Source of the DNA: an uncultured Rikenellaceae bacterium
GTDB lineage: Bacteria > Bacteroidota > Bacteroidia > Bacteroidales > VadinHA17
Length of the DNA: 64,000 bases
Assembly: GCA_964640125.1 (NCBI GenBank)
Contig: CAZXGG010000006.1
Coordinates: forward strand, 15,756-79,755
Direction of reading: 5' to 3'
Below, one piece after another: positions 80 through 54,570 of the stretch. The notes under the pieces are model-generated. The model did not search any database. It was not told where the DNA came from and worked only from the letters and a program-made list of their open reading frames with translations. Position numbers and translations under genes: made by a program. Within the stretch, counting starts at the first letter, position 1; the number at the start of each line of letters is the position of its first letter.

Positions 80-1303
80 CTACAAATTAGCACGTTTTAC
101 AATAATGGTTGAATTGGTCCCTCCAAATCCAAATGAATTGGAAAGAAAGATATTAATTTTTTTTGACATTGTTTCACAAATTATATTGAGTTTAGCAGAA
201 GCCTCATCCGGTTTTTCAAAATTGATATTTGGTGCGATAAATGAATGCTGCATCATCAGGATTGAATAGATAATTTCACTTGCTCCTCCCATCCACATTT
301 CATGACCGGTCATGGATTTGGTGGAGCTGACCGGGATATGGTATTCACCGAATATCTGGTTAAGTGCTTTTGCTTCATTCAGATCTCCTATTGGTGTAGA
401 GGTTGCATGGGCATTGATATAATCTAAACTTCTGGCATCTAAACCTGCATTGTCAATTGCTCTTTGCAGCGAGCGTACGGGTCCTTCAACGTTGGGTTGT
501 GAGATATGATCACCGTTGGAGGAGAAGCCATATCCTATCATTTCGGCCAGTATGGGAGCTCCTCTTTTCTTTGCCGACTCATACTCCTCCAGGATCAAGG
601 TAGCTGCTCCGCCACTCGGAACGAGTCCATCCCGGTCAATATCAAAGGGCCTGGAGGCTTTTGTCGGCTCATGTTCCCGCAGCGAAAATGCGCCCAATCC
701 ATCAAAACTTCCCATGGATTCCAGGCTGATCTCCTGCCCTCCACCACAGATTATCCGATCCTGCAGGCCATGTTGAATCAAGAAATAGGCCATCCCGAGT
801 GCATGCGATCCACTGGCACAGGCTCCACTTACCGTGAAATTTATTCCTTTCAGTTTATAAATAACCGACAGATTCATACTGATTGTGGAATTCATGGACT
901 GGAAGATAGTGCCTGAACCCAGCATGGTTGTATCCTTCTTCTCCCTCAACAAATCGAAGGATGCGACAACCGACTTTGCTGTGCTATCGTTCCCGTAAAG
1001 AATCCCCACTTCATTTTTCTCCAGGAACTCCCGGTCCAGACGGGCATTATCCAACGCTTCTTCAGTAGCAATAAAAGCATATTCACCCTCCTCTCCCAGG
1101 CCAACCCTTAACCTTCTATGCAGCCGGCCTTTCAAATCCGGTTTCTCAATCATTCCGGTAAGGGCGGAACGGAAACCCATTTTTTTCCGCTCCGGATCAA
1201 ACCCTATTCCCGATTTACCATAGTAAAGGGAATCCCTCACCTCGGAGAGGTTTTTGCCAATCGTCGAATAGATCCCCATTCCTGTAATAACCACCCTTCG
1301 CAT
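80..1303 (-). CDS. beta-ketoacyl-ACP synthase, KAS I/II family (elongating ketosynthase)
   Basis: 407-aa ORF. Active-site Cys in 'SGACASGSHALG'. His motifs 'INAHATSTPIGD' and 'STKSMTGHEMWMGGA'. C-terminal 'NSFGFGGTNSTIIV'. Together these give a thiolase-fold Cys-His-His KS. Confidence 0.9.
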   Translation of the reverse strand: MRRVVITGMGIYSTIGKNLSEVRDSLYYGKSGIGFDPERKKMGFRSALTGMIEKPDLKGRLHRRLRVGLGEEGEYAFIATEEALDNARLDREFLEKNEVGILYGNDSTAKSVVASFDLLREKKDTTMLGSGTIFQSMNSTISMNLSVIYKLKGINFTVSGACASGSHALGMAYFLIQHGLQDRIICGGGQEISLESMGSFDGLGAFSLREHEPTKASRPFDIDRDGLVPSGGAATLILEEYESAKKRGAPILAEMIGYGFSSNGDHISQPNVEGPVRSLQRAIDNAGLDARSLDYINAHATSTPIGDLNEAKALNQIFGEYHIPVSSTKSMTGHEMWMGGASEIIYSILMMQHSFIAPNINFEKPDEASAKLNIICETMSKKINIFLSNSFGFGGTNSTIIVKRANL

Positions 1304-1349: not shown

Positions 1350-2078
1350 TCAGGTGTATAACCCGCCATTTACTGAAATCACTTCGCCTGTAATATAGGA
1401 TGCCCCTTCTGACGCAAGGAATGCAACGGTTTCGGCAACCTCTTCCGGGGTGCCGAAACGATTCAGGGGAATAACGGATTTAAACTCCTTTTCATCCAGA
1501 TCCCTGGTCATATCCGTGGTGATGAAACCCGGAGCAACAGCATTCACCGTAACGTTTTTCTTGCCAACTTCCTGTGCAAGCGATTTGGTTGCGGCAATAA
1601 CACCGGCTTTTGAAGCGGCATAATTCGTTTGACCCGGAAGACCTTTTATTCCGGAGAGAGAGACAACATTTACAATCCTGCCATACTTCCCAATCATCAT
1701 ATCTTTTACCAGCCTTCTGGTCAGATAAAAAAAACCGTTCAGGTTGGTATTGATCACATCCATCCATTCTTCATCGGTCATCCAAACCAAAACGGCATCC
1801 TTGCGTATCCCGGCATTATTTATTAATATTTCAATGTACTTCTCCGGATTCCGTTCAGTCCAGGATTCCAGTGCAGCATCAATATCGGAAAGCTTTGAAA
1901 CATTAAACTGGATCAGTTCACCAGATCCACCACCATCCACTACCTGGCTCAGGGTTTGCTCTGCCTCTTCTTTACTTTTGTTGTAGTTGATCAAAACGTG
2001 ATGACCCAATCCGGCCATTTTCATGCAAATTGCCCGCCCAATACCACGCGACCCACCAGTAACCAATACATGTTTCAT
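1350..2078 (-). CDS. fabG: 3-oxoacyl-ACP reductase (SDR family, FabG-like)
   Basis: 242 aa. 'VLVTGGSRGIGRAI' (TGxxxGIG), 'NNAGI', catalytic 'YAASKAG' (YxxxK). Sits between the KS and the ammonia-lyase. Confidence 0.88.
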   Translation of the reverse strand: MKHVLVTGGSRGIGRAICMKMAGLGHHVLINYNKSKEEAEQTLSQVVDGGGSGELIQFNVSKLSDIDAALESWTERNPEKYIEILINNAGIRKDAVLVWMTDEEWMDVINTNLNGFFYLTRRLVKDMMIGKYGRIVNVVSLSGIKGLPGQTNYAASKAGVIAATKSLAQEVGKKNVTVNAVAPGFITTDMTRDLDEKEFKSVIPLNRFGTPEEVAETVAFLASEGASYITGEVISVNGGLYT

Positions 2079-2110: not shown

Positions 2111-3649
2111 CTATCTCAATTTCTTTCTGGTACTCAATAGGTGCTGCTTCACTCTCCGGATCTCATCACTCATCACATGATCACCGATAAATTTGGGAAT
2201 GATGTCCCGTACTTCTTTAAAAACAGACCGGTTGAATGCAGAAAGTTTCTTCTCAATCTCCAGGTAATCCACCGCCTGAAGAACAGCGATGAGTTCAATT
2301 GCAACGACTTCATATGCATTTTCGATCACCTTTCTTGCTATCAATGCCGCAGTGGTTCCCATGCTTACGATGTCCTGGTTATCGTTGTTACATGAGATGC
2401 TATGAATATATGCCGGGAAGGATAACGTTTGGTTTTCGGCAACCGTTGATGTTGCTGTGAACTGAATCCCCTGCATTCCAAAATTCAGTCCAAGTTTTCC
2501 TAAATTCACAAACGGTTGTAATCTCGCATTCAATTTACTGTTCAAGAGGAAATTCAACTGTCGTTCTGCCAGCATGGATAATTTGCTAATGGCTATTTTC
2601 AGCTTATCCATTTCGATGGCAACGTAATCTCCATGAAAATTACCTCCGTGAAAAACATTCTCATTATCCTGGTCAATGATCGGATTATCATCCACAGAAT
2701 TGACTTCATTCATGACCACTGATTCTGCATGATCAAGTGTATCCAGCACAGGTCCCAGAATTTGAGGTATACAACGAACCGAATAGTACTCCTGTACCTT
2801 GTCGTTTAATACACCGGGACCAATATGGTTGTTATAGAGGTGTTCGGATCTTCTTCTGATCAGCTGACTATCTGAAAGAACATCCCTCATCCATTTTGAA
2901 ACGGTTCTCTGTCCCTCATGCGATTTGACCTGGTTCAGCTCAAATGAAAAATGATCGTCATAGGATTCGACAATCTCATTGATCAGGCAGGAAATGATCA
3001 CAGACCAATGCAACATGTTTCTTGCCTGTATCAGATTAACCACACCGATCCCTGACATGGCAGAGGTCCCGTTAATTATCCCCAATCCCTCACGAATATA
3101 CATTTTCAGTGGTTGAAGGGAATATTCGTCGAACACCTCCTTTGTCGGACGGGTTTCACCCTGATGAGTAACTTCTCCTTCGCCTATCAATGCAAGCCCC
3201 AGGTGGGATAATTGAACAAGGTCACCGCTTGCACCTACACCTCCATGTTCATAAATAACCGGGTAGATCTCCCGGTTTATCATCTCCTTGAGCAGGTGAA
3301 TTATATCCGGATGAACGCCGGAATTACCCTGCAAAAAGGTGATTAACCGCGCTATCATCAACGATTTAACATAGATCCCGGGGATTGGATCACCCGTGCC
3401 AGCTGAATGGCTGCGAATGAGATTATACTGAAGCTCTATCTGATCAGCCTCATCGATCCTGTATTGCGCCATGGGTCCAAGTCCGGTATTGATCCCATAG
3501 ATGATCTTATCTTTTGAAAAACCTTGCAAAAAGTCGAAACTGGATTTCACCCTGCTGATGACTTCCTCGCTGATTTCGATTTTTTCTCCACCAAAAAGCA
3601 GTCTGTAAAAATCCTCGGCGGTTACCTTCTGTTTCTTAAACGTTATCAT
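2111..3649 (-). CDS. MIO-dependent aromatic amino-acid ammonia-lyase (HAL/PAL/TAL family); by context probably tyrosine ammonia-lyase supplying a 4-coumarate starter
   Basis: 512 aa. MIO-forming Ala-Ser-Gly in 'GGVGASGDLVQLSH'. Also 'NTGLGPMAQY', 'LQYNLIRSHSAGTG', 'NDNQDIVSMG'. The TAL assignment is contextual, based on the flexirubin FlxA-type arrangement next to KS/FabG. Confidence 0.85.
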   Translation of the reverse strand: MITFKKQKVTAEDFYRLLFGGEKIEISEEVISRVKSSFDFLQGFSKDKIIYGINTGLGPMAQYRIDEADQIELQYNLIRSHSAGTGDPIPGIYVKSLMIARLITFLQGNSGVHPDIIHLLKEMINREIYPVIYEHGGVGASGDLVQLSHLGLALIGEGEVTHQGETRPTKEVFDEYSLQPLKMYIREGLGIINGTSAMSGIGVVNLIQARNMLHWSVIISCLINEIVESYDDHFSFELNQVKSHEGQRTVSKWMRDVLSDSQLIRRRSEHLYNNHIGPGVLNDKVQEYYSVRCIPQILGPVLDTLDHAESVVMNEVNSVDDNPIIDQDNENVFHGGNFHGDYVAIEMDKLKIAISKLSMLAERQLNFLLNSKLNARLQPFVNLGKLGLNFGMQGIQFTATSTVAENQTLSFPAYIHSISCNNDNQDIVSMGTTAALIARKVIENAYEVVAIELIAVLQAVDYLEIEKKLSAFNRSVFKEVRDIIPKFIGDHVMSDEIRRVKQHLLSTRKKLR

Positions 3650-3822: not shown

Positions 3823-4737
3823 CTATGAATTCATGTACACCGGCAGTTTGTTAATTGGAAAAATCCTGAAATCCCCCTCAATAAACTTGCCCATTTTGTA
3901 TAGGCTTTTTCCTGCTCCACACTCAATGAATGTTTCTATTCCCAGTTCAATCATGGTTTTCATGGTCCGATACCAGTTTATTTCAGAGTCCAGGTTTCTT
4001 GCCAGTTCATGAGCAATTTCTTCCCGGTACCTGAAAGTTGATTGATCGATCAGGGAGACCAATGGAATTTCAGATGTCTCAATACTCAGCTCATTAACAT
4101 AAGCATGAAATTCCGAAGCCACATCCTTCATAAATTTTGAATGATAGGGGCAAGATACATCGAGTAATCCGGAATGAAATGCACCTTCTGTACGGGCTTT
4201 CAATGCTACCTGTTTAACATCAGAGGAGATCCCTGAAATGACATATGAGTGGAGCCCGTTGGTATTCACAATATCAACATCATTGCTGATGGAGTGGATA
4301 ATGTTATCAAGTTCCTCATGCGTAAGACCAATGATTGCCCCCATCCCAAAATCATACTGATTCAACCTGTTGTCTGACAGTTCATATGCTTCTTTTATAC
4401 AACGTAATCCATCCTCATAGGAAATGGAATTCCCGGCATACAGTGCTGCGTAGATTCCCATACTCAATCCGGAAAGAAAATCCGGTTTTAATCCTCTTCT
4501 TTTCAGGATATTAACAACAACACAACTAAACACATAGGATATATATTGATTCTTATTTTCCTCAGCCAGGAAGTCATTGGTTTCCATTTGAAAGCTGTTC
4601 AGATCTGTTTGGGTAACCTCAGCAGCTCTTTTCAATAACGCATCAAAATCGGATGATAATAAGGAGAGAATCTGATCCTCGTTGCCAATGTATTCCGAAA
4701 TAAAAGCGGGAAAAATCCAAGCTGTTTTCATTCTCAT
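3823..4737 (-). CDS. acyl-carrier-protein acyltransferase, FabD-like fold (atypical)
   Basis: 304 aa. GxSxG nucleophile elbow 'GLSMGIYAAL' where FabD has GHSLGEY. Later 'HSGLLD..PYHS' region. Start abuts the stop of the PPTase gene. Confidence 0.7.
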   Translation of the reverse strand: MRMKTAWIFPAFISEYIGNEDQILSLLSSDFDALLKRAAEVTQTDLNSFQMETNDFLAEENKNQYISYVFSCVVVNILKRRGLKPDFLSGLSMGIYAALYAGNSISYEDGLRCIKEAYELSDNRLNQYDFGMGAIIGLTHEELDNIIHSISNDVDIVNTNGLHSYVISGISSDVKQVALKARTEGAFHSGLLDVSCPYHSKFMKDVASEFHAYVNELSIETSEIPLVSLIDQSTFRYREEIAHELARNLDSEINWYRTMKTMIELGIETFIECGAGKSLYKMGKFIEGDFRIFPINKLPVYMNS

Positions 4738-5127
4738 CTACTTAATCAAAACCACCTGAAACATCACGAAGGTTTCGGTATATTCTGCATGTGAGTCTAT
4801 TCGCTGTAATCCCTGTTGGATGAATAGTTCCTTTGCATAACCACCCAATTCGATATCATAATTTTCCTGTGTATCTCCACGAAAGATTAATTCAATGTCT
4901 TTCCAGGATATCGGGCTGTTGGTCCAGCTTCTTCCAAACGCCTTGAACATTGCCTCCTTGCAGGAGAAGCCCAATGAAAATCTGATTTCTTTGTGTAAGG
5001 CATTGTTTAACGAGACCTCCTTCTGTGTAAAAACATCAGCAATAAAGGAGGGAGGGGGTTCATATAGATCTAAATGCCTGGTAAACCTGTTTATCTCTTC
5101 AATATCAACACCGCAACCAAAGATCAT
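4738..5127 (-). CDS. acpS: 4'-phosphopantetheinyl transferase, AcpS type
   Basis: 129 aa. N-terminal 'GCGVDIEEI' (GxD Mg site), 'FTQKE', 'FSCKEAMFKAFG' (KEA motif). Directly downstream of the ACP. Confidence 0.8.
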   Translation of the reverse strand: MIFGCGVDIEEINRFTRHLDLYEPPPSFIADVFTQKEVSLNNALHKEIRFSLGFSCKEAMFKAFGRSWTNSPISWKDIELIFRGDTQENYDIELGGYAKELFIQQGLQRIDSHAEYTETFVMFQVVLIK

Positions 5128-5150: not shown

Positions 5151-5465
5151 TTAATCCAATTCCAGGATGGCATTCTCGTGTTCAATGATCAACAATTGGG
5201 TGTGGATCAATTGACCCACGGTACGCACAGGATGCTTAACATTGTATTTACCAATTGTCTTTAGATCGATATTCAGAGAGTATTTCTTTTTAAAAATTTC
5301 AATCAGTTCCAGGAACATCAGGGAATCACCACCAAGATCTTGAAAAATATCGGTTGTATCATCAATTGCGTTCAATTCCACTTCGCACTCATCGGCAAAA
5401 AATTGATAAACAATTTCATTCACTTCTTTCCGAGTCTCGTCTGTTAATTTGTTCATTTTCTTCAA
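5151..5465 (-). CDS. acyl carrier protein
   Basis: 104 aa. Phosphopantetheine attachment motif 'LGGDSLMFLELIE'. Lies between KS and PPTase. Confidence 0.85.
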   Translation of the reverse strand: MKKMNKLTDETRKEVNEIVYQFFADECEVELNAIDDTTDIFQDLGGDSLMFLELIEIFKKKYSLNIDLKTIGKYNVKHPVRTVGQLIHTQLLIIEHENAILELD

Positions 5466-5543: not shown

Positions 5544-6782
5544 TTATTCAAAAGTGTCGTACTTTTTCAGGACGATTGATGCATTGTGTCCCCCGAATGC
5601 AAATGAGTTTGAAAGGGCATGTGTTATGGGGTGTTTTCTGGCTTTGTTGGGAACAAAATCAAGGTCCAGTTCCGGATCTTTTTCATAGTTAATGGTCGGT
5701 GTGACGGTTTCTTTCAACATGCTCATGATGGTAATCGCTGCCTCGATTGCACCGGCAGCACCAATGGTATGTCCTATCATCGATTTCAATGATGAGATGG
5801 GGATCTGGTATGCTTGCTCCTGAAAAACTTTTTTGATTGCCAGTGTTTCATATCGGTCATTCAGGATTGTAGAGGTCCCGTGTGTATTAATATATTGAAT
5901 ATCAGCCGGTTTAAGATTGCTATTCTGCAAGGCCAGTTCCATGGTTTGAGCCATGCCTTCTCCATCATTCATGGGTGCCATAATATTATAGGCCTCACTG
6001 GTTAGCGCATAACCTGTAATTTCTGCAATGATTGTTGCTTTTCTCGCCAGTGCGAACTCTTCCGATTCAAGGATAAGGACACCTGCACCCTCTCCAATAA
6101 CAAATCCATCCCTGCTTTTTGAGAATGGTTTGCTTGCTTTTTCCGGAGGATCATTTTCAACCGACAGGGCAAAGAGTTCATTAAACCCGCGTATCTCTTC
6201 AGGATTGATGATTGAATCCGCCCCACCCACTATCACAATATCTGCTTTGTTCGATTGAATCAGGTCATAGCCCAATCCGATGGCATAAGCTGAGGATGCA
6301 CATGCTGTAGCCACAGTATAATTGGGTCCAAGAAGTTTATATTCCAGCGATATCCAGGCAGACATGGAATTATTCATACTTTTTAAGATCGCATTTTGAA
6401 TGGTTGTTCCCTTTTCCACACTGGAATTACCGGTATTTACAACACCCATTATTACAGCACATCGGGTTTTGTCAACGCTTGAGAAATCGATTCCGCTTTT
6501 TTCAACAGCCACTTTGGCACAGGTAAAACAGAACTGTGTCACTCTGGTCATTTGCCTTGCCGTACGTTTCCGGATATACTCTCTGGCGAGATCCTCAAAA
6601 TTCATTGGAACCTCTGCAGCAATCTGTGTTTGGAGATCTGAAGGGTCAAACAATGAAATTCGCTTAACACCGCTTTTACCCTGAACAAGGTTTTCCCAAT
6701 TCGTATCGAGATTCAGCCCAAGGGCAGAAATAACATCCATCCCCGTAACCACTACTTTTCGATTCATCGCTGTATGATTCAT
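5544..6782 (-). CDS. beta-ketoacyl-ACP synthase II family (FabF-like)
   Basis: 412 aa. 'TVATACASSAYAIG' (Cys), 'INTHGTST' (His), 'LKSMIGHTIGAAG' (His), 'NSFAFGGHNASIVL'. The start may be the internal 'MNRKVVVTG' at 6767. Confidence 0.9.
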   Translation of the reverse strand: MNHTAMNRKVVVTGMDVISALGLNLDTNWENLVQGKSGVKRISLFDPSDLQTQIAAEVPMNFEDLAREYIRKRTARQMTRVTQFCFTCAKVAVEKSGIDFSSVDKTRCAVIMGVVNTGNSSVEKGTTIQNAILKSMNNSMSAWISLEYKLLGPNYTVATACASSAYAIGLGYDLIQSNKADIVIVGGADSIINPEEIRGFNELFALSVENDPPEKASKPFSKSRDGFVIGEGAGVLILESEEFALARKATIIAEITGYALTSEAYNIMAPMNDGEGMAQTMELALQNSNLKPADIQYINTHGTSTILNDRYETLAIKKVFQEQAYQIPISSLKSMIGHTIGAAGAIEAAITIMSMLKETVTPTINYEKDPELDLDFVPNKARKHPITHALSNSFAFGGHNASIVLKKYDTFE

Positions 6783-6787: not shown

Positions 6788-7846
6788 TTACAATTCAAAG
6801 GGACCTTTTTCACAATTCATGTATTCTTTGACCGCGAAGGTAAGTTCTTCTTCAGTACAATACCCCTGTTCGACGAACCGCGTGGCAGCATCGACATACC
6901 AACCTCTCAGCCTCTCTGTAATCGATCCGTTACACGCCTCTATGCTGCTTTTTTGATTGTTGTTATCCGGAGTGACTCTTTGCTGTGCTTCCCAGGTATA
7001 GAAACCCTGGGCCGTTTTCATCCCTAACCTGTTCTCTCTAATCATGTTCCCCAGATGATTCAGCAACGGTTGGTAGAATCCCCGGTTCTTCGCATTTTCC
7101 GTGTACCGGTCAATTGAATTGCGTATTACATCAATTCCAACACGATCAAAAAATTCAAACACTCCCACAGGGAAAAAATCCCTTACAATCAAGTCATCCA
7201 TTTCTTTAAATGAAAGGTTGTTCTCTTTACATAGCTGGAATGCTCCTGCCTGAAAATCCAAAAATAAACGGTTTAACAAAAAAGCACTTTCCCCCTGCTG
7301 AAGAATAAACTTCTTATTCATGTGGTTTAGGAAAAGCCGGGAGTTCTGCAGTGTTTGCCTGCTTGTATTCCGGGCAATGATTAACTCGACAATATTGGTA
7401 AACGGGACGGGATAAAAAAAATGCATCCCAATCACTTTATCTTTCCTCTTACCATGTGTATACCAATCTTCCGGGAGTATGGAAGAGGAACAGGATGCAA
7501 AGATACAATCGCTATTTGTGACCCGATCAAGTTTTTCAAACAATTTTCTTTTCAGGCAGAGATCCTCCGTTATGGTTTCGATGATTAAATTACATTGTGC
7601 CAACTTCCGGGGCAAATGACTTACGTGTATTTGATTCAACCGGTTTTCATACCTGTCATGATCAATAAGTCCTGTTCTAAACGTTCTCGTCCATCTTTTC
7701 CTTACCTGTTTTTCAAGATCCTCAACATCATTCTTTGTTTTGCAGATCCACACCAGTGGGAATTCAAAGTCAAGGAGATAACCGAAAAGACTGGTTCCCA
7801 TTTTTCCTTTCCCTACGATACCCACATGAAAATCTAACGGGTTCAT
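6788..7846 (-). CDS. 3-hydroxyacyl-CoA dehydrogenase family, NAD-binding
   Basis: Rossmann 'VGIVGKGKMGTSL' followed by a 3HCDH-like body. I place the start at the ATG at 7846 ('MNPLDFHVG'). That ATG overlaps the upstream rSAM stop as ATGA. The track ORF extends to 7873. Confidence 0.75.
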   Translation of the reverse strand: MNPLDFHVGIVGKGKMGTSLFGYLLDFEFPLVWICKTKNDVEDLEKQVRKRWTRTFRTGLIDHDRYENRLNQIHVSHLPRKLAQCNLIIETITEDLCLKRKLFEKLDRVTNSDCIFASCSSSILPEDWYTHGKRKDKVIGMHFFYPVPFTNIVELIIARNTSRQTLQNSRLFLNHMNKKFILQQGESAFLLNRLFLDFQAGAFQLCKENNLSFKEMDDLIVRDFFPVGVFEFFDRVGIDVIRNSIDRYTENAKNRGFYQPLLNHLGNMIRENRLGMKTAQGFYTWEAQQRVTPDNNNQKSSIEACNGSITERLRGWYVDAATRFVEQGYCTEEELTFAVKEYMNCEKGPFEL

Positions 7847-9429
7847 TTCTGATCTACCATTTGGTTTTTCCATGCTCCTTTATCCTGCAATTTTATCTCG
7901 TTCCGCATTTCCGGAAGGTGTTTTTTCATTACCCGGAGGTGGCGGCGAAATCCTTCCATTGAAACAAGGAAAATTGCTGCCGACTCAATGGCAATCTTAT
8001 CCTTCCGGATCAGGTTGATCATTTTTAAAAACGCTTGGCGTTTGGATTTATCCCTGGAAAAGAGGTAAATCCACAAAAGATGGAAGGTCATTTTTAATTT
8101 AAAGAAAAATCCACTCTGATCGGTCTTATAGGTTCGAACAAAATATCCCTTAACAAAGAGTGGAAATGCTCTTTCTCCAATGGATTCCCAGGTGTACAAG
8201 TGGTTAAGAGTTTCGTGATACCTGTCGAATAGTTCAAGCTGGGACATCTGCATATAGTGAAGGACGGGAAACATGCCGCCGGTATATTTTGCTTTCCCCT
8301 GAACCAATCTGCCCTCCTTTTTCATTCTTTCATGCAGGTCTGTCCCTTCGTGGGTTCCCAGTATACTGACCATGACATACACCAGTTCAGCTTTAATGGC
8401 AAACTGATAAATGTTGTTAAACTCTTCCAGCGTATCATGGTCAAATCCGACGATAAACGAGCTGTAAACCTGAATTCCAGCTTTGTTTATCCGGCGAATC
8501 GCATCGAGGTAGTGTTCTGCTTTGTTCTGAAATTTCTTGGTCTCTTTAATGCTCTCCGGGTTGACGGATTCTAAACCCAATACGATAAAACGGCAACCGG
8601 CTTCTGCCATTTCTTTTAACAGTTCCTCATCGTCAGCCACATCAAGGCTTGACTGGCAGGTCCAGGTAATTTCGAAGGGCTTTATTCTCCGCATCAATTC
8701 CAGAGCATATTTTTTATTTATGGTCAGGTTATCATCCACAAACAGGATGTTCCTGATGGGCAGGGCTGCCACCTCCTCAACCACATTATCGATATCCCGG
8801 AATCGGACTTTCCTGCCAAACATTTTTGAGACAATACAAAATTCACATTTATAAGGGCACCCTCTGGTAGCCTGTACACTGAGCGACAGCACGTTACTTG
8901 TGTCCACCAGGTCCCATCTCGGGAGGACATTCTGTGAGAAGTCTATTTTCTGTTCCGACTGATATATCTCCTGAAGTTTTCCCTGCTCGAAGTCTGCCAG
9001 GCACTTTCCCCATAGTTCTTCCGCTTCACCGATAACCACGCTATCGGCATGTACAAGACCCTCTTCCGGTTCATAGGTCACATGCGGTCCTCCAAGGATC
9101 ACTTTAGCTCCCCGGTCTCTGAACATACCTGCTATTTGATAGGTTCTCTGAATTGACGGAGTATGAGTTGTAATACCAACGATATCCGGTTTTGCATTTA
9201 TGGGAATGGGGTTCAGCTCCTCATCAAAAATTTTGATATCATAATAATCGGGGGTGAGGGCTGCCAAAATCGGAAGGGCGAGGGATGTGTTTGCGTTTTT
9301 CCGGCCAACCAGTCTGGCAGTAAAACATTGTGTTCCAAAATGCTTGAATTGCTGAAATGGACTGATCAGGAATAACGTAAATTTTTTTCCCTCCCTGCAT
9401 CCCGTTCCTTCATGTTCATAGTCCGGCAT
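7843..9429 (-). CDS. B12-binding-domain radical SAM enzyme (class B), paralog 1
   Basis: 528 aa. N-terminal cobalamin-domain-like 'DIVGITTHT...VILGGPHVT...HADSVVIGEAE'. Radical SAM cluster motif 'ATRGCPYKCEFCIV' (CxxxCxxC). Long C-terminal extension. Confidence 0.85.
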   Translation of the reverse strand: MPDYEHEGTGCREGKKFTLFLISPFQQFKHFGTQCFTARLVGRKNANTSLALPILAALTPDYYDIKIFDEELNPIPINAKPDIVGITTHTPSIQRTYQIAGMFRDRGAKVILGGPHVTYEPEEGLVHADSVVIGEAEELWGKCLADFEQGKLQEIYQSEQKIDFSQNVLPRWDLVDTSNVLSLSVQATRGCPYKCEFCIVSKMFGRKVRFRDIDNVVEEVAALPIRNILFVDDNLTINKKYALELMRRIKPFEITWTCQSSLDVADDEELLKEMAEAGCRFIVLGLESVNPESIKETKKFQNKAEHYLDAIRRINKAGIQVYSSFIVGFDHDTLEEFNNIYQFAIKAELVYVMVSILGTHEGTDLHERMKKEGRLVQGKAKYTGGMFPVLHYMQMSQLELFDRYHETLNHLYTWESIGERAFPLFVKGYFVRTYKTDQSGFFFKLKMTFHLLWIYLFSRDKSKRQAFLKMINLIRKDKIAIESAAIFLVSMEGFRRHLRVMKKHLPEMRNEIKLQDKGAWKNQMVDQK

Positions 9430-9569
9430 CGCTCCTGCTTACTAAACTAATTATCTTTCAAATGGTTAGTTCAATCTCTCATCAAAAAATACCCTTTTTC
9501 AAAGAAATGGTATTTCCAGGCTGTAAAAATATTGATTTGTTTACATTCAGGAAAATTCCACAAGAAAAT

Positions 9570-9577
9570 TATTTTTG
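9570..9577 (+). promoter_or_regulatory. candidate Bacteroidetes -7 promoter box (TAnnTTTG) for rSAM paralog 2
   Basis: 'TATTTTTG' read at 9570..9577, 78 nt upstream of the ATG at 9655, in the divergent intergenic region. No well-spaced -33 TTTG was seen. Confidence 0.3.
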
Positions 9578-9654
9578 TGATTTAAAAGTGGTTAATAAAA
9601 TCCTGGAGATCCGTAAACCAATCCCATGTATTGTTACCTCTGAGACAGTGTACT

Positions 9655-11064
9655 ATGAAGATTAAGCTTATTTTATCTGCAAACCCAAACGATCCGTTGA
9701 AGAACCGGGAACCCTTTATGCCTTTATCTCTGCCGATTCTCGCTGGTACAGCACCGGAGCATGATTATGAGTTTATTGATATGCTGATGGATTCCAATGA
9801 AATCAACTATGATGAACCCATTGATCTTGTCGGTATTAGCATCAGGCTTTCTGCTGAAGATATAGCATACCGTATCGCAGATGAGTTTAGCAAAAGAAAT
9901 GTAACGGTTGTCCTTGGCGGTCCGCAGGTCTCTTCTGTTCCTTTTGAAGCGATTGAACATGCCGATAGCGTGGTTATCGGAGAAGCGGAGACATTGTGGC
10001 CCAAATTACTCAAGGATCTGCAAAACGATCGGTTGAAGGATTTTTATGTTTGTTCCCCTTCTCCATTTGATCCGCAAGGGAGAACATACTACCAGCTCGA
10101 TGAAATGCCTAACCTGGAAGGTCTTCCAAAACCCAACAGAAGTTTGTTTAAAAGAAAATACACCTTCGACATGGTTTATGCTTCCAGGGGATGCCCGATA
10201 GATTGTGACTTCTGTACTGTGACGACCTTATTTGGAAGTAAATACAGAATGCGACCCGTTGAGGAGGTGGTGAATGAAATTGCCGGTTTTACAGGATATT
10301 ATTATCTCCTGGATGATACGGTATTCGGCAGACCATCCACGTATGCTTATTACCTGGAGCTATTCGACCGGATTTCGAAGCTGAAAAAAAGAAATTACTG
10401 GACCGGCCAGGCTAATCTTGATGCGGCAACAACAAAAAAAGGACAGGAGGTCATCCGAAAAGCAGTTGAAACTGGATTTCTTTATGCAGCCGTGGGTATT
10501 GAATCCATTAATAACAAGGTGCTGAAAAAAAGCCGAAGCATTTCCAAAATGGGTATTCGCAACCACCAGGATGTAATCTCCAGGATGAAAGAGAGCATTG
10601 CTTTTATGCAGGAGCAGGGTATTGTCATCTCCGGATGGTTTGCCATCGGCTATGAAGAAGATGATATCGATGCCTATTATCGAACCTGCGAATTTTGCGA
10701 GGAAACCAATATTCTTCCGGTATTTTCACCCGTTCATGCACTGCCGGGATCAAGATTATACCAGCGGCTGTCAAAGGAGGATAAATTGCAGGATAACAGA
10801 ACAAACATCACCAATGTATCCCACCCGAGTATGACAAACCAGGAAATCATGAAAGCCCTTGAATATGTTGTGGAAAAAGGTTATAGCTTCAATGAGATCG
10901 TGAAAAGGACACGGTTCTATTGGAACAAGTTTACCCCGGAAAACTTCAATTCAACAGGCGATAAGATTCACAAGACCATTTTTACCTATATGACACAACA
11001 ACGAATGAAAAAAATCACGCAAAGCGAAAACAGGAAACTTCAAAGTAAGCTTCAAGACCGGTAA
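9655..11064 (+). CDS. B12-binding-domain radical SAM enzyme (class B), paralog 2
   Basis: 'DLVGISIRL...VVLGGPQVS...HADSVVIGEAE' and 'ASRGCPIDCDFCTV'. ATG at 9655 ('MKIKLILSANP') is preferred over the TTG at 9631 used by the track. Confidence 0.85.
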   Translation: MKIKLILSANPNDPLKNREPFMPLSLPILAGTAPEHDYEFIDMLMDSNEINYDEPIDLVGISIRLSAEDIAYRIADEFSKRNVTVVLGGPQVSSVPFEAIEHADSVVIGEAETLWPKLLKDLQNDRLKDFYVCSPSPFDPQGRTYYQLDEMPNLEGLPKPNRSLFKRKYTFDMVYASRGCPIDCDFCTVTTLFGSKYRMRPVEEVVNEIAGFTGYYYLLDDTVFGRPSTYAYYLELFDRISKLKKRNYWTGQANLDAATTKKGQEVIRKAVETGFLYAAVGIESINNKVLKKSRSISKMGIRNHQDVISRMKESIAFMQEQGIVISGWFAIGYEEDDIDAYYRTCEFCEETNILPVFSPVHALPGSRLYQRLSKEDKLQDNRTNITNVSHPSMTNQEIMKALEYVVEKGYSFNEIVKRTRFYWNKFTPENFNSTGDKIHKTIFTYMTQQRMKKITQSENRKLQSKLQDR

Positions 11065-11179: not shown

Positions 11180-11740
11180 ATGAAAAAAATTGCTATGATT
11201 ATGGTTGTTGTTTTCGGAGTCCAGCTCATGGCTCAGGGACAACCGTTTGAGAAAGGAGACAAAACGATTAATCTGGGGATTGGAATAGGTTCTGCTCTTT
11301 ACTCCGGTAAACTTTACAAAATGAGAATCCCACCGATATCCCTCTCCTATGAGCAGGGTATTACCAATAAGTTAGGCATCGGGTATATCGGTGTTGGTGG
11401 ATATTTCGGGATCAGCGGATCGAAATGGGAGACAGAGTACCTAACCTATGAATACGGATGGAAATATACGTACATCGTTCTTGGCGCTCGTGGAGCCTAT
11501 CATTTTGATCTGGTAGATAACCTGGATCTCTATGCCGGCCTTATCCTCGGGGTCAAATTTGTAAGCAGTAAAGAGATCGGTGATTGGCCAACGGGTGTCA
11601 CTGTTAGTGAACAGAGCACCGGTGTGGCTCATAGTGAATTTGCAGGAATACGGTGGTTTTTCAAGCCAAATTTTGCCTTAATGGCGGAACTTGGATACGG
11701 TATAAGCTATCTCACTGTTGGAGCATCTTTCAAATTTTAA
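11180..11740 (+). CDS. small outer-membrane beta-barrel protein (OmpW/porin-like)
   Basis: 186 aa. Signal peptide 'MKKIAMIMVVVFGVQLMAQG'. Alternating Gly/aromatic beta-strand pattern. C-terminal 'GASFKF' ends in Phe. Confidence 0.65.
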   Translation: MKKIAMIMVVVFGVQLMAQGQPFEKGDKTINLGIGIGSALYSGKLYKMRIPPISLSYEQGITNKLGIGYIGVGGYFGISGSKWETEYLTYEYGWKYTYIVLGARGAYHFDLVDNLDLYAGLILGVKFVSSKEIGDWPTGVTVSEQSTGVAHSEFAGIRWFFKPNFALMAELGYGISYLTVGASFKF

Positions 11741-11935: not shown

Positions 11936-14332
11936 TTGATACCGTTTACGCCCATGACATTCTCCAGATCAGTCCATTCATTTCCACTGACTATCCTGTT
12001 TCTGGGAATCTTTATTTCCAGCGGCTTTTCTCAGGTTGTTTTCAAACAGAATATTCGTGGGACTGTTGTGGATAAAGCATCACAATTCCCGCTGTCAGGT
12101 GTGAATGTCATCCTTATTGGTTCCGATTCCCAGCATGGTACCATTACAAATGACCATGGGGAGTTTCGCTTTGAAGAAATCGTTATCGGAAGATACGACC
12201 TTCAGGTGAGCTATGTTGGATACAATACAGTAACCACTCCGGGAATGGAACTCACCTCTGCCAAAGAGATGGTGCTTGAGATAGAGATGGAAGAGAAAGT
12301 ATTAACCCTCGATGAAGTGACCGTAAAGGCTTACTCGAGGAAAGACCGCCCCATTAATGAAATGGCAACAGTCAGTGCACGGTCTTTTACAGTGGAAGAG
12401 ACAAACCGGTATCCTGGAAGTTATGGAGATCCTGCACGAATGGCTGCCAATTACGCAGGGGTTATGACAGCCAGGGATAACAGGAATGACATCGTGATCC
12501 GTGGCAATTCTTCCATTGGCCTGCTCTGGCGTCTTGATGGCATTGAGATCCCGAATCCAAATCATTTCGGTGCTTCCGGAACGACCGGTGGTCCCATTTC
12601 AATCCTGAACAACAACCTGTTAACCAATTCCGATTTTTATACCGGTGCATTCCCCGCTGAATACGGGAATGCGCTCGCCGGAGTATTTGACCTTAACATG
12701 CGGTTCGGGAATAATGAAAAACGGGAACACTGGGGCCAGATTGGATGGAACGGTATAGAATTTGGAACAGAAGGACCCTTTTCAAAGAACTCAAAAGCTT
12801 CCTATCTTTTCAGTTATCGATACTCGATTGTCTCCATTATTGAAAAACTAGGGATTAATCTGGAAGAAGCAGCAGAGTACCAGGACCTGACACTAAAAAT
12901 CAATCTGCCCAACACCAGGGCCGGCAGTTTTTCCATCATCGGAATGGGCGGACTGAGTCACATTGATATATGGGATTCCGATAAGGATCAGTCCGACTGG
13001 TCATTTAATGATTCTGGAGAAGATCTTACCAATGGATCAGATATCGGGGTGATTGGCCTTACACACACCCATTTCATTAAAAAGAAAACCCGGTTAAAAA
13101 CCACCGCTTCGGTAATGGGTTCCCGTGTTGAAACCAGGATCGACACATTTACTGTGAGCAACCCCGACCCGTTTATCTGGGCTGGAGAGCAATCATCAGA
13201 AACGAAATACTCCTTTACCTCCCAGCTTACCCGGAAGATCAATGCCAGAAATACACTGGTTCTTGGTGCAATGTACGATATCTACCAGACCAGCTTTGCC
13301 GATAGTCAATACTATCACGGGAACTACCGGTTGGATACCGATGCCGAAGGTAACCTTTCATTGATCAGGGCTTTTACCCAATGGCAGCATAAATTTACGG
13401 ATCATCTCTCTTCATCCATGGGTGTACATTACCAATACCTTACCTTTAACGGGTCCTGGTCTCTTGAACCAAGAGTGGGGATTACGTGGGAGTTCATTAC
13501 AAATCAATCGATCAACCTGGGTTACGGATTGCACAGTCAGATTCAGCCTCGTTTATTCTATTTCGTGTTGTCTCCCCAAACGGATGGAAGCTATGTTCAA
13601 TCCAATCGAAACCTTGGAATGTCAAAAAGCCATCAAGTGATCCTCGGATACGATTATCTGCTGAATGAAAACCTGAGACTAAAGATTGAAACATACTACC
13701 AAAAATTGTTTAATATTCCTGTTCAACCAAAAAATCCCGCTTACTCCCTCCTGAATACCGGGGCAGAATATTTTATTGAAAGGCAGGATAGCCTTGTTAA
13801 CGAAGGGACCGGTGAAAATTACGGGGTTGAATTGACATTCGAACGGTTCCTGAGCAATAACTATTATTTCCTCATTACAGCATCCTTGTTCAGCTCCACC
13901 TATGAGGGCCATGATGGAATAAAAAGAAACAGTGCTTTTAATGGCAATTATGTTTTCAATGCCATTGGTGGTTATGAGCTGATTTTCCCAAACCGGAAAG
14001 ATATTGCATTCAATTTCGGACTGAAAGCAACCTGGGCCGGTGGAGTTCCCTATGTCCCATATGATGTTGAAGAGACGGTACGATTGGGGGAAATTGTCCT
14101 GGATTGGGACCGGGCTTATGAACCCCGGCGCAAGGATTACATCAGGGCGAGCCTTCGATTGGGCATTAAGCGGAACAGACCAAAATTCGACATGGAAACG
14201 GCCATGGATTTTCAGTACCGGACAAATTACACCACCGTATTCCTGGAAAGGATCGATGTCAATACCGGAGAAATTCACAAAAATTATAAGATGGGATTCT
14301 ACCCGATGGCGACCTGGAAAATACAGTTTTGA
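11936..14332 (+). CDS. TonB-dependent receptor with N-terminal carboxypeptidase-regulatory-like domain
   Basis: 798 aa. 'IRGTVVDKASQFPLSGVNVILIGSD' (CarbopepD_reg-like). Plug-like 'IVIRGNSSIGLLWRLDGIEIPNP'. Long beta-barrel ending 'ATWKIQF'. Start is uncertain: TTG at 11936 or ATG at 11951. Confidence 0.85.
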   Translation: MIPFTPMTFSRSVHSFPLTILFLGIFISSGFSQVVFKQNIRGTVVDKASQFPLSGVNVILIGSDSQHGTITNDHGEFRFEEIVIGRYDLQVSYVGYNTVTTPGMELTSAKEMVLEIEMEEKVLTLDEVTVKAYSRKDRPINEMATVSARSFTVEETNRYPGSYGDPARMAANYAGVMTARDNRNDIVIRGNSSIGLLWRLDGIEIPNPNHFGASGTTGGPISILNNNLLTNSDFYTGAFPAEYGNALAGVFDLNMRFGNNEKREHWGQIGWNGIEFGTEGPFSKNSKASYLFSYRYSIVSIIEKLGINLEEAAEYQDLTLKINLPNTRAGSFSIIGMGGLSHIDIWDSDKDQSDWSFNDSGEDLTNGSDIGVIGLTHTHFIKKKTRLKTTASVMGSRVETRIDTFTVSNPDPFIWAGEQSSETKYSFTSQLTRKINARNTLVLGAMYDIYQTSFADSQYYHGNYRLDTDAEGNLSLIRAFTQWQHKFTDHLSSSMGVHYQYLTFNGSWSLEPRVGITWEFITNQSINLGYGLHSQIQPRLFYFVLSPQTDGSYVQSNRNLGMSKSHQVILGYDYLLNENLRLKIETYYQKLFNIPVQPKNPAYSLLNTGAEYFIERQDSLVNEGTGENYGVELTFERFLSNNYYFLITASLFSSTYEGHDGIKRNSAFNGNYVFNAIGGYELIFPNRKDIAFNFGLKATWAGGVPYVPYDVEETVRLGEIVLDWDRAYEPRRKDYIRASLRLGIKRNRPKFDMETAMDFQYRTNYTTVFLERIDVNTGEIHKNYKMGFYPMATWKIQF

Positions 14333-14451: not shown

Positions 14452-14829
14452 GTGATGAAAAATCAAATGCTAAAGACACTTTTTTTAGTTGCCCTGGTGT
14501 TAATCATCCCGGTTTCGGCAATGGCAAACAAAACATCTGTTGAGTTAACCGCACCTGAAAAAGCTGAAAAAGGAAGTGAAGTTACAGTGGTCATCCATGT
14601 AAAACACATGGGAAATTCAGCTACTCATTTTACCGATTGGGTTTCTGTTAAGATCAATGATAAAGAGGTGAAACGCTGGGAATACAACAAAAAGGAGCGG
14701 CCTGAAGCGGGCAATTTTACACTGGAATACAAATTTGTATTGAACGAAAAATCGAAAATCGTTATCCAGGGCAATTGCAATAAACACGGAAGCGCCGGCC
14801 CGAAAGAAGTAGTGATCGATGTGATGTGA
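14452..14829 (+). CDS. secreted desulfoferrodoxin/neelaredoxin-fold (superoxide-reductase-like) domain protein
   Basis: 125 aa. Signal peptide 'MMKNQMLKTLFLVALVLIIPVSAMA'. 'HVKHMGNSATHFTDWV' and 'GNCNKHGSAG' resemble the His...His and C-N-x-H-G iron-ligand motifs of SOR domains. The first N-terminal His ligand was not seen. Confidence 0.45.
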   Translation: MMKNQMLKTLFLVALVLIIPVSAMANKTSVELTAPEKAEKGSEVTVVIHVKHMGNSATHFTDWVSVKINDKEVKRWEYNKKERPEAGNFTLEYKFVLNEKSKIVIQGNCNKHGSAGPKEVVIDVM

Positions 14830-15373: not shown

Positions 15374-16711
15374 ATGAAGATCCTGTTAATCAATCCACCT
15401 CGTTCACCGAAGAATCAGATCCTTGAATCCGCTCCTGAGGAGGCAAAACCATTCATTCATAGAAAGCTCATTGGACCACCGCTGGGTTTACTGACCATCG
15501 CAGCTGCAACAAAAGATCATGATGTCAGGGTTTTTGATATGAAAGGAGAGTATGATCTCGATCCCGCGACACCTTCGCTACAGAATTTAACCCTACAACT
15601 ACTCCGTGAGCATGATCCTGACATCGTAGGCATAACCGTCATCACATCGGAATTCAACTTCTCCATTGAAATATTCGAAACCGTCAAACAATATGATCCC
15701 TCCATTTTAACGGTTGCAGGAGGACTTCATACCACACTCTGCCCCGAAGATTTCACGGATCGGGCCATCGATATTGTCTGTCCCGGACAAGCTGGTGATA
15801 CGTTTCGAAAGGTGGTTGAAGCCCGGGAGAAAGCTTTGCCATTCCATAAAATCCCCGGAATATTTGTCAACTCACCAGATGGATTAACCAGGACCCCCGG
15901 TCATACGCCATCATGGGATGCAGCCGGAAGGGATTTTCTGATGCCCGACCGCAGCCTCCTGAACCGCTGGAGATCAACTTACAGGGTGGGGAAAAACATT
16001 GAACCGTCGACCTACCTGTTTACATCACAGGGTTGTCCTTATGAATGTACTTTTTGCTCCATCTGGTGCGAGTTCAAAAAGAAATTCCACCAGCGTGATC
16101 TGGAAAGTATCATCACGGAATTGAAACTGGTCGATTATTCAATTGTCCGGTTTGCAGATGCCAACACCATTGTGAATGTTGACTTTATTAACCGGCTGCT
16201 CGACCGTATTCAGGAAGAAGGCATTGAAAAAGAGTTCATCATGGATATCCGTGCTGATACGGCAGTAAAACACCCAGGGCTTATTGAGAAACTTGCCAGA
16301 ACGGGATTAAAAGTGGTTATCTGTGGATTCGAATCATTCAGGGATGAAGAACTTGCGTATTACAAAAAAAAGTCACCTGCCGGTATCATTGAGGAAGCCA
16401 TTCGTGTTTTTCACCAGAACGGGATCCTGTTGCGTGGCAATTACGTTGTTCCGGGTTACTATACTCACGATGACTTCAAGGCCCTGGCTGATTATGCCGA
16501 TTCACACCGGGTGAGTTATGCAGGATATACTATTCTGACTCCAATGCCGGGTACACTCCTATACCGGGAAATGAAAGAGGCGATCATCGATCATGACCTT
16601 GCCAAATACAACTTTTTCAACTCCGTAACAACAACCCGGTTGCCGATTGATGAGTTTCACTACGAGGTTGGAAAACTCTGGTTGATAAAAAAGGGAACAG
16701 ATGTGATATAA
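15374..16711 (+). CDS. B12-binding-domain radical SAM enzyme (class B), paralog 3 (most divergent)
   Basis: 445 aa. 'DIVGITVITS...TVAGGLHTT' N-terminal domain. 'TSQGCPYECTFCSIW' CxxxCxxC motif. Confidence 0.82.
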   Translation: MKILLINPPRSPKNQILESAPEEAKPFIHRKLIGPPLGLLTIAAATKDHDVRVFDMKGEYDLDPATPSLQNLTLQLLREHDPDIVGITVITSEFNFSIEIFETVKQYDPSILTVAGGLHTTLCPEDFTDRAIDIVCPGQAGDTFRKVVEAREKALPFHKIPGIFVNSPDGLTRTPGHTPSWDAAGRDFLMPDRSLLNRWRSTYRVGKNIEPSTYLFTSQGCPYECTFCSIWCEFKKKFHQRDLESIITELKLVDYSIVRFADANTIVNVDFINRLLDRIQEEGIEKEFIMDIRADTAVKHPGLIEKLARTGLKVVICGFESFRDEELAYYKKKSPAGIIEEAIRVFHQNGILLRGNYVVPGYYTHDDFKALADYADSHRVSYAGYTILTPMPGTLLYREMKEAIIDHDLAKYNFFNSVTTTRLPIDEFHYEVGKLWLIKKGTDVI

Positions 16712-21976: not shown

Positions 21977-22021
21977 ATCATCGTCTGTATAGATCTATCG
22001 TTGGTAACCAGCATCACTCGA

Positions 22022-23242: not shown

Positions 23243-23404
23243 GCTACAAAAATAATCTTATCACCGGTTTTTCACAGATAACCGGAAAAATTAATTGATC
23301 TGAATTCATTATATTAGGAACGCATTTGAACCGGTTATCCGTTAAAAAGATAACACAATTGATTGGAAATCATAAAATCCTTACTATAGCGGAAAGAGCC
23401 TAAA

Positions 23405-24916: not shown

Positions 24917-24923
24917 AAATATT

Positions 24924-26627: not shown

Positions 26628-26704
26628 TGATTCCCACACAATTTTTCCTTAATTTAACATAAAAACAGGGAGCTATTTAATGAACCACACTATATCAATC
26701 CGGA

Positions 26705-29783: not shown

Positions 29784-29879
29784 TATTCATTCTTCATCAG
29801 GTTGTCTGATCCACATTTCTTCTGTATAATTCTCACGGCCCATACCTGGTCTGACATATCGAGTTAATTTTTGGTAGTG

Positions 29880-51169: not shown

Positions 51170-51187
51170 CGGAAAAAATAAGAAGCC

Positions 51188-53401: not shown

Positions 53402-53425
53402 TGATAATACGTAAAACAAGTAGAT

Positions 53426-54493: not shown

Positions 54494-54508
54494 GTTGTAG
54501 GTTAAGTA

Positions 54509-54557: not shown

Positions 54558-54570
54558 CAAATGATAACAC

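Follow-up and report, generated by a model that had tools for sequence, protein, structure and literature searches.

Five genes for radical S-adenosylmethionine (SAM) enzymes with a B12-type domain, four of them (p1 to p4) inside and one (p5) 1.1 kb to the left of a 64,000-nucleotide stretch of DNA from an uncultured Rikenellaceae bacterium (assembly GCA_964640125.1, contig CAZXGG010000006.1, positions 15,756 to 79,755; hereafter the window), are found in what is, by gene content, a flexirubin-type aryl-polyene/dialkylresorcinol cluster. The explanation that we favour overall, and hold to be somewhat probable, is that p1 to p5 are non-redundant, O2-independent tailoring enzymes of a flexirubin-type cluster in an anaerobic, Bacteroidales-like bacterium. 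That the radical SAM copies belong to this cluster at all is very probable, and the divergent pair, p1 and p2, is predicted to encode two distinct radical SAM enzymes of ancient divergence, both with an N-terminal Rossmann domain of the B12 type. The copies and the p1/p2 spacer are as follows (positions are those of the window; aa, amino acids).

7843-9429, minus strand: p1, 528 aa; Rossmann (B12-type), radical SAM and DUF4070 domains; CPYKCEFC motif
9430-9654: p1/p2 spacer, 225 nt, divergent, AT-rich (32% GC)
9655-11064, plus strand: p2, 469 aa; Rossmann (B12-type) and radical SAM domains; CPIDCDFC motif
15374-16711, plus strand: p3, 445 aa; full-length B12-binding and radical SAM domains
31022-32290, plus strand: p4, 422 aa; CRFNCYPC motif
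-2483 to -1125, left of the window (L084:11818-13176): p5, B12-domain radical SAM protein; member of TIGR04072 (425 bits, cut-off 360)

Radical SAM lineages and their linkage to the cluster

The first-pass annotation had described p1 and p2 as near-paralogues within a family recently expanded to four copies, a description that is not borne out for kinship, age or number. Identity between p1 and p2 is 29% over 404 aa, that of the other pairs among p1 to p4 22-27%, and that among all five copies 20-29%, while a profile-profile alignment of the p1 and p2 families, 385 columns long, is at 30% identity. In a neighbour-joining tree the copies of the window do not group with one another; each falls among its orthologues from elsewhere, and each of p1 to p4 is closer to its orthologue at locus L168 (GCA_964468645.1; 53-77% identity) than to any other copy. 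These mutual identities, together with the placement in the tree, point to old and separate lineages, and such conserved orthogroups fit the proposal of several distinct modifications better than they fit redundancy. The strings quoted earlier are all present, namely HADSVVIGEAE, found unchanged at residue 127 of p1 and at residue 110 of p2, the cobalamin-domain-like strands DIVGIT/DLVGIS and VILGGP/VVLGGP and the strings ATRGCPYKCEFC/ASRGCPIDCDFC in p1/p2, and HADSIFLGEVE and ASRGCRFNCYPCAV in p4. The shared 11-mer is nevertheless a family-wide motif, recurring, with minor changes, in a large number of p1, p2 and p4 family members, and so gives no sign of recent duplication; the D[IL]VGI[TS] pattern likewise matches p3.

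The fifth copy was recovered from a contig that differs from the window by 4 mismatches in 10,692 bp and runs 3.1 kb beyond its left end. There the minus-strand operon headed by p1 continues with an acyl carrier protein (ACP) gene, a lipid-A-type acyltransferase, p5 and an ApeP-like dehydratase, p5 lying between the acyltransferase and the dehydratase; it is the sole copy that reaches a curated family. The p1, p2 and p4 families are large: at E <= 1e-10 the search with each protein yielded between 1,546 and 6,256 relatives, which come from metagenome-assembled genomes (MAGs) assigned to Bacteroidota, Lentimicrobiaceae among them, and to Chitinivibrionales. The p1 orthogroup is found at 43-55% identity in many Bacteroidota MAGs and p2 relatives at 55-64%; conservation is far stronger in p4 than in the other copies, the top 120 relatives listed for p4 all being at least 73% identical (73-79%), the window's own and near-identical sequences included. 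In all 120 of these p4 relatives a proline, not the usual aromatic residue, precedes the third cluster cysteine (CxxxCYPC).

A metagenome scan with p1 alone was more informative on the context of orthologues than a contig search with the p1-family alignment, which returned mostly broad DUF4070-type radical SAM proteins at 30-38% identity and three loci above 43%. Nineteen distinct loci carry a p1 relative of at least 41% identity. Cluster genes adjoin it in 14 of them and are lacking beside it in three (L001, L002, L081); in the remaining two (L087, L091) it lies within arrays of further radical SAM genes with an acyltransferase adjacent. The earlier proposal that the enzymes are dedicated to a ketosynthase (KS)/ACP-type cluster rather than being accidental neighbours is thus upheld by these 14 loci and by L168, where all four copies p1 to p4 lie within 16 kb. 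On one strand of L168, p2 (64% identity) is followed by a thioesterase, two enoyl-CoA hydratase (crotonase) genes, a ketosynthase III (KSIII), p1 (53%), a 3-hydroxyacyl-CoA dehydrogenase and a KS; upstream are an acyltransferase (AT), an ACP, p3 (68%), a DarG-like gene, DarH, a second ACP, a sulfotransferase, p4 (77%), an open reading frame (ORF) of 124 aa and a receptor-like outer-membrane protein (OMP).

Other loci repeat parts of this arrangement in different orders. L169 resembles L168 but lacks p1 and has a split KSIII; its KSIII is present as two ORFs (L169:13274-14393), maybe a decaying copy of the module. At L170 a p2 relative stands beside ACP, DarH and DarG genes, with a radical SAM-dehydrogenase pair and a thioesterase-hydratase pair nearby. 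L082 has the order thioesterase, hydratase, hydratase, KSIII, p1, 3-hydroxyacyl-CoA dehydrogenase, KS, ACP, AT, and also holds a TIGR04072-like radical SAM gene, p3 (63%) and a GT2 gene. The KSIII/crotonase/thioesterase cassette is directly 5' of p1 in L082 and in L092-L103, and the dehydrogenase stays beside p1 in L082, L083, L168 and L170. A recurrent block (L003, L093-L099, L103) runs from a fusion of an MMPL transporter and a methyltransferase through a lysophospholipid acyltransferase, a flavoprotein, in some cases a C45 acyltransferase, p4, the 124-aa ORF, thioesterase, two hydratases and KSIII to p1, with identities of 72-75% for p4, 63% for KSIII and 43-45% for p1. Orthologues of p3 (63-68% identity) are present in L082, L168 and L169, and the TonB-receptor-like gene of the window is kept in the L168 and L169 clusters (52-55%). 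Across these shuffled gene orders p2, p3 and p4 are linked to the cluster in every sampled locus.

The small ORF of about 124 aa trails p4 in every locus examined, and the two come after the flavoprotein gene in L171, L172, L093-L103 and L003. Two closed genomes, sampled independently, carry p4 and this ORF right after the flavoprotein of a compact aryl-polyene-type cluster, with no KSIII cassette found within 10 kb of p4; a tie of p4 to the KSIII cassette was rejected on the strength of these two genomes. Taken together, the loci lead us to read the cluster as modular, with p4, its partner ORF and p5 going with the polyene core, and with p1, p2 and p3 forming an optional module that centres on the DarB-like KSIII and also takes in the thioesterase, the crotonases, the dehydrogenase, DarG/DarH and a set of KS, ACP and AT genes. 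The assignment of p1 and p2, and probably p3, to such a resorcinol-type module is likely.

Some of the p1-like genes away from such clusters have neighbourhoods of their own. The gene at L081:10001-11674 (48% identity) lies in a 6-Mb genome without KS/ACP neighbours, and a full mevalonate-pathway operon (HMG-CoA synthase, reductase, kinases) is found about 3.5 kb 3' of it. L087:10001-16131 holds a p1-like gene, three more radical SAM genes, an AMP-ligase and an acyltransferase, with no KS seen within 10 kb, and L091 combines a p1-like gene with at least one more radical SAM gene; the p1-like proteins of these two loci are 50-51% identical to p1, and the loci look like a different kind of multi-radical-SAM locus.

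In the window itself, p2 has an open frame from 9631 to 11064 on the plus strand, and its start was set at the ATG at 9655 because 26 of 26 p2 homologues begin MKIKLILSA. With this start the head-to-head arrangement of p1 and p2 across 225 nt is confirmed. The spacer contains a single Bacteroidetes-type TAnnTTTG box, on the plus strand at 9570 and 77 nt ahead of the p2 ATG, and no Rfam family matched in it. On the other side, the minus-strand operon of the window starts with p1, and its genes from p1 through the KS at 80-1303 are spaced by -4 to 173 nt. The p1 stop TGA and the second ATG of the dehydrogenase interlock as ATGA (7846-7843), that ATG also being the start in an independent gene call on a near-identical contig. 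The translational coupling proposed from this overlap would be confined to close relatives, the ATGA being kept neither in L082 nor in L168. The head-to-head layout, with the same genes in the same order 3' of p2, is likewise restricted to relatives at least 75% identical (L088, L173), and in our reading the pair in the window arose by local rearrangement of an ancestral co-directional operon.

Gene content of the flexirubin-type cluster

The cluster spans about 37 kb around p1/p2, and its genes other than the radical SAM copies are listed here (PPTase, phosphopantetheinyl transferase).

80-1303, minus strand: KS, p1 operon
1350-2078, minus strand: ketoreductase (KR), p1 operon
2111-3649, minus strand: FlxA tyrosine ammonia-lyase, p1 operon; NCBIfam 820 bits (cut-off 700)
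3823-4737, minus strand: acyltransferase, p1 operon
4738-5127, minus strand: PPTase, p1 operon
5151-5465, minus strand: ACP, p1 operon
5544-6782, minus strand: KS, p1 operon
6788-7846, minus strand: 3-hydroxyacyl/3-hydroxybutyryl-CoA dehydrogenase, adjoining p1, its start overlapping the p1 stop
11180-11740, plus strand: small beta-barrel OMP, 3' of p2
11936-14332, plus strand: TonB-receptor-like OMP with a CarboxypepD_reg domain and a weak Plug match
14452-14829, plus strand: secreted desulfoferrodoxin-like protein, before p3
16794-27805: export/tailoring block with lysophospholipid acyltransferase, MMPL transporter-methyltransferase fusion, GT2-DUF2062, phytoene-desaturase-like flavoprotein, C45 acyltransferase and OMT-fold methyltransferase
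28000-28473, plus strand: DarG-like, below the NCBIfam cut-off
28473-29474, plus strand: DarH acyltransferase (BtrH-like); NCBIfam 313 bits (cut-off 300)
29871-30971, plus strand: sulfotransferase, directly 5' of p4
32334-32708, plus strand: conserved p4 partner of 124 aa, without a family match
32727-34079, plus strand: FlxY acyl-CoA ligase (PaaK-like); NCBIfam 688 bits (cut-off 520)
34166-35293, minus strand: DarB-like KSIII, cassette
35271-35966, minus strand: crotonase, cassette
35992-36360, minus strand: PPTase, cassette
36389-37141, minus strand: crotonase, cassette
37134-37565, minus strand: thioesterase, cassette

The assignment as a flexirubin-type cluster is based on FlxA, FlxY and DarH, all of which exceed their NCBIfam cut-offs; FlxA and FlxY, the pair by which such a cluster is recognised, are both present. 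They are accompanied by type II polyene machinery (KS, ACP, KR and dehydratase (DH), the last just left of the window) and by the export genes LolA, GT2-DUF2062 and MMPL, and the flexirubin LolB2 can be identified in the syntenic locus L082. A true DarB was not found, the KSIII scoring 110 bits against a cut-off of 450 for the StlD/DarB model and 90 against 550 for DarB, nor was FlxJ, for which the OMT-like gene reaches 37 bits against a cut-off of 560. A DarA match was absent from the NCBIfam scan, which covered 29 ORFs of the cluster; for the ketoreductase and one PPTase the scan was against Pfam only. A cassette for beta-branching of the HMG-CoA-synthase type was considered for the KSIII and the two crotonases and rejected, the scores of the KSIII being 110 bits for StlD/DarB and 80 for FabH against 25-37 for HMG-CoA synthase models. 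The best NCBIfam models for the dehydrogenase and the crotonases are 3-hydroxybutyryl-CoA dehydrogenase and short-chain enoyl-CoA hydratase. The cluster also has no fewer than three ACP genes, and two PPTases, one in the p1 operon and one in the KSIII/crotonase cassette.

Several further genes of the cluster deserve mention in their own right. The fusion at 18125-21976 is a 1283-aa protein with an MMPL/HAE3-type transporter and a C-terminal class I SAM methyltransferase, and its homologue at L171 carries an acyltransferase domain too. The sulfotransferase is kept in L168 and L169 (50-52% identity) and hints at sulfation of the product, something not known from flexirubins. For the TonB-receptor-like OMP, cobalamin uptake and placement of the pigment in the outer membrane are both possibilities, and no riboswitch was detected ahead of its gene in an Rfam scan. 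Further to the right, 48206-62172 is occupied by a polysaccharide utilisation locus of the SusC/SusD type with alpha-amylase-type glycoside hydrolases and T9SS-tailed proteins; it is unrelated to the radical SAM cluster and confirms the Bacteroidota host.

Domains, folds and the cobalamin question

All of p1 to p4 contain the CX3CX2C cluster motif, and they are assigned to the radical SAM superfamily from this motif within PF04055, which in p4 is a match below threshold with the motif conserved. The Pfam results are given below, in bits, with cut-offs of 29.5 for PF04055 and 32.1 for PF02310 (B12-binding).

p1: PF04055 96; PF02310 40.9, partial; DUF4070 present
p2: PF04055 43; PF02310 29.6, below cut-off; DUF4070 present
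p3: PF04055 55; PF02310 64.6, full length; DUF4070 not found
p4: PF04055 26.4, below cut-off; PF02310 30.6, below cut-off; DUF4070 not found

PF02310 thus matches all four proteins, though below the cut-off in p2 and p4, and the refutation named earlier, that profile models would miss a B12-binding domain, did not come about. The combination of a B12-type Rossmann domain with a radical SAM domain is upheld; the class-B label attached to these genes earlier is one of domain homology, and the closest solved relative of p1, in sequence as in fold, is AprD4, which is cobalamin-free. Against TIGR04072 (cut-off 360) p1 scores 77, p2 59, p3 20 and p4 41 bits. Among the HpnJ, HpnR, BchE, PhpK, AprD4 and MgmA equivalogs, all matches of p1 to p4 are partial and 3-10 times below the cut-offs, the best being p1 to HpnJ (130 bits, cut-off 578) and p3 to HpnR (128, cut-off 650) and BchE (104, cut-off 481); the score of p1 against the AprD4-family model is 66 bits (cut-off 500).

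For p1 and p2, AlphaFold2 (AF2) gave models of high confidence (pLDDT 91.4 and 91.8) that have alternating strand and helix elements consistent with an N-terminal Rossmann-type domain. Foldseek against the Protein Data Bank (PDB) places AprD4 first for both proteins (TM about 0.72) and MgmA/QCMT (9ccb) second, with TM 0.62 for p1 and 0.70 for p2, followed by CysS, OxsB, TsrM and TokK. By sequence, the nearest solved proteins are AprD4 for p1 (E 2e-17, 21% identity) and p4 (E 7e-5), MgmA for p2 (E 1e-9), MgmA (E 4e-11) and TokK for p3, and TsrM for p5 (E 6e-23). AprD4 binds no cobalamin despite its Rossmann-like domain (PMC12931638), and one review describes no single sequence motif that settles cobalamin binding (PMC13331322). 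The fold was considered as an arbiter of cobalamin binding and set aside, AprD4 being nearest to p1 and AprD4 and MgmA about equally near to p2. Cobalamin dependence is most plausible for p3 and p5, and the case is a caution that a Pfam B12-binding match does not establish class-B chemistry.

Competing explanations and proposed roles

A number of observations weigh against the reading of p1 to p5 as dedicated tailoring enzymes of a flexirubin-type cluster. Proteins 46-51% identical to p1 occur outside such clusters (L001, L002, L081, L087, L091), the cassette is carried without p1 at L169, and in loci of the L094 type p1 has no adjoining dehydrogenase. Each of p1 to p4 falls below every curated NCBIfam cut-off, PF02310 is sub-threshold for p2 (29.6) and p4 (30.6), the cobalamin-free AprD4 is the nearest fold for p1 and p2 alike, and a cobalamin riboswitch was not found in the window by the Rfam scan. 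The absence of DarA covers the ORFs of the window and a few loci only, and the KSIII is only a distant relative of DarB, so that a 'resorcinol' product is itself a putative one.

The scheme of the first-pass annotation, in which a recently expanded cobalamin-dependent class-B family acts on a single acyl/polyene chain made by the KS/ACP operon, through methylation, ring formation or C-C coupling in several or iterative steps, can draw on p1 as head of a tightly packed KS/ACP/AT/KR operon whose next gene it overlaps, on p5 between the ACP/acyltransferase genes and the ApeP-like dehydratase of the polyene core, on p4 travelling with that core, and on the analogous 'ladderane-type' fatty-acid-synthesis clusters with several radical SAM genes (PMC2649909). 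It is nonetheless unlikely, given the age and separateness of the lineages, the position of p1 and p2 in L168, where they flank the KSIII/crotonase cassette and not the head of the KS/ACP operon, and a cobalamin use deduced from domain homology with AprD4 as nearest fold. A single acyl/polyene scaffold is not what the loci suggest, since p1 and p2 bracket the DarB-like KSIII cassette near DarG/DarH while p4 goes with the polyene core. A lower probability still is given to the view that p1, and perhaps p4, is a cobalamin-independent, AprD4-like radical dehydratase or dehydrogenase paired with an NAD(P)-dependent dehydrogenase and not class B in function. AprD4 has a reductase, AprD3, as its partner. 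Among PDB entries it matches p1 best, in sequence as well as in fold, and p4 best in sequence, and the adjacency of p1 and dehydrogenase recurs. The lack of cobalamin in AprD4 despite a Rossmann-like domain (PMC12931638) also speaks for this view, but 21% identity and 66 of the 500 bits that the AprD4 family requires are low, p1 exceeds the Pfam B12-binding cut-off, if with a partial match, and the cobalamin enzymes MgmA, CysS, OxsB, TsrM and TokK follow closely in the fold search.

The nature of the product might also differ, the radical SAM enzymes remodelling the fatty acyl chains of a modified membrane lipid or hydrocarbon rather than serving a flexirubin-like pigment, as has been put forward for the 'ladderane-type' clusters of Kuenenia, Desulfotalea and Geobacter. 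The combination of radical SAM genes with a phytoene-desaturase-like flavoprotein, a phenylacetate-CoA-ligase-like enzyme, a glycosyltransferase and a membrane transporter matches Rattray's description (PMC2649909), and in loci of Geobacter and Sedimenticolaceae distant p1/p2-like genes have KS, KR and GT2 genes for neighbours; yet FlxA, FlxY and DarH above their cut-offs indicate a tyrosine-derived aryl starter and an esterification partner of the dialkylresorcinol (DAR) type, which makes this alternative decidedly improbable. Chance neighbourhood of enzymes with an unrelated function would account for the few p1-like genes outside lipid or polyketide synthase (PKS) contexts (L001, L002, L081), but is contradicted by synteny, namely by linkage in 14 of 19 loci for p1 and in every sampled locus for p2, p3 and p4, and can be given hardly any weight.

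Under the favoured reading of p1 to p5 as flexirubin-type tailoring enzymes, the canonical pathway offers a point of reference: DarB cyclises two fatty-acid-derived thioesters to a cyclohexanedione, which DarA aromatises to a resorcinol (PMC3949708, PMC3992019). In the present cluster the KSIII would carry out the condensation, and the dehydrogenase and the crotonases would supply 3-oxoacyl and enoyl partners for this DarB-type step, as suggested by their best matches to 3-hydroxybutyryl-CoA dehydrogenase and enoyl-CoA hydratase models. The enzymes p1, p2 and probably p3 would work on intermediates of the resorcinol-type half that are bound to CoA or ACP; CysS and TokK are solved class-B enzymes that act on pantetheine-linked substrates. 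They may perform radical steps that require no O2 and that the aerobic route through DarA and DarB either dispenses with or carries out in another way, and, because DarA is missing from the scanned ORFs, one of them could provide an O2-independent oxidation or aromatisation. The AprD4-like core of p1 and its recurrent dehydrogenase partner would favour p1 for this, in a dehydrogenation or dehydration-type step coupled to the NAD-dependent dehydrogenase, and p1 could thereby aromatise the cyclohexanedione. With MgmA and TokK as their nearest solved relatives, p2 and p3 may be cobalamin-dependent C-methylases or alkyl modifiers of unactivated carbons in ACP- or CoA-bound intermediates. These specific chemistries of p1, p2 and p3 are a guess that is rather unlikely to be right in its details, and no more probable is the proposal that strictly anaerobic Bacteroidota have an O2-independent route to flexirubin-like aryl-polyene/resorcinol pigments in which the three enzymes replace DarA and reshape the DarB step, for instance by radical aromatisation of the cyclohexanedione and by C-methylation of unactivated alkyl carbons.

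Flexirubin clusters of the aerobic Bacteroidota Chitinophaga pinensis and Flavobacterium johnsoniae share with the present one FlxA, FlxY, DarH and a DarG-like gene, type II KS/ACP/KR/DH genes, LolA/LolB2, GT2-DUF2062, acyltransferases and an MMPL-type exporter (PMC3992019). Unlike them, the present cluster has no DarA, true DarB or FlxJ match and carries a distant DarB-like KSIII, two crotonases, a thioesterase, a 3-hydroxyacyl-CoA dehydrogenase, five B12-domain radical SAM genes, a sulfotransferase and a TonB-receptor-like OMP. Accounts of canonical flexirubin clusters give DarA as the aromatase and DarB as the cyclase and make no mention of radical SAM genes (PMC3992019, PMC3949708); a literature search for a link of flexirubin, aryl polyene or dialkylresorcinol biosynthesis to radical SAM or B12 found nothing relevant in the library that it covered. 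The 'ladderane-type' type II fatty acid synthase (FASII) clusters of Kuenenia, Desulfotalea and Geobacter also have several radical SAM genes amid KS/ACP genes, together with a phytoene-desaturase-like flavoprotein, a PaaK-like ligase, a glycosyltransferase and a transporter (PMC2649909), and the functions of the radical SAM enzymes in these clusters are still unknown (PMC13459092). Of the copies described here, p5 but not p1 to p4 is a member of TIGR04072 (rSAM_ladder_B12), and, unlike the 'ladderane-type' clusters, the present one has flexirubin-specific genes and an aryl starter.

Among characterised enzymes, the radical SAM 1,2-diol dehydratase AprD4 (PDB 6fd2) has the same three-part architecture as p1 and p2 but differs in its 17-22% identity to them in fold alignments, its aminoglycoside substrate and its lack of cobalamin (PMC12931638). 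The cobalamin enzymes MgmA/QCMT, CysS, TokK and TsrM likewise combine a Rossmann domain, a radical SAM barrel and a C-terminal helical domain, and MgmA is the best or second-best match for p1 to p4; these methylases differ in that sequence E-values are 1e-4 to 1e-11 and all equivalog cut-offs are widely missed. HpnJ, HpnR and BchE give the best partial NCBIfam matches, with scores 4-5 times under the cut-offs, so that p1 to p4 are not members of these families either.

In chemotaxonomy flexirubins serve as a marker of aerobic Bacteroidota, and the cluster type described here, which is abundant in anoxic metagenomes, keeps the aryl-starter genes while the resorcinol machinery is swapped for a KSIII/crotonase cassette amid radical SAM enzymes. 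We regard it as a moderately interesting variant, open to experiment, of the flexirubin-type and 'ladderane-type' clusters, with new chemistry not established. If the favoured reading is true, the cluster would show by what means pigments of this kind are made or decorated in anaerobes, where oxygen is lacking; it would also place at least four large radical SAM families without an assigned function in a concrete substrate context and provide a tractable relative of the unsolved 'ladderane-type' radical SAM problem; if, in addition, p1, p2 and p3 do replace DarA and reshape the DarB step, this would mean new reaction types for three large radical SAM families.

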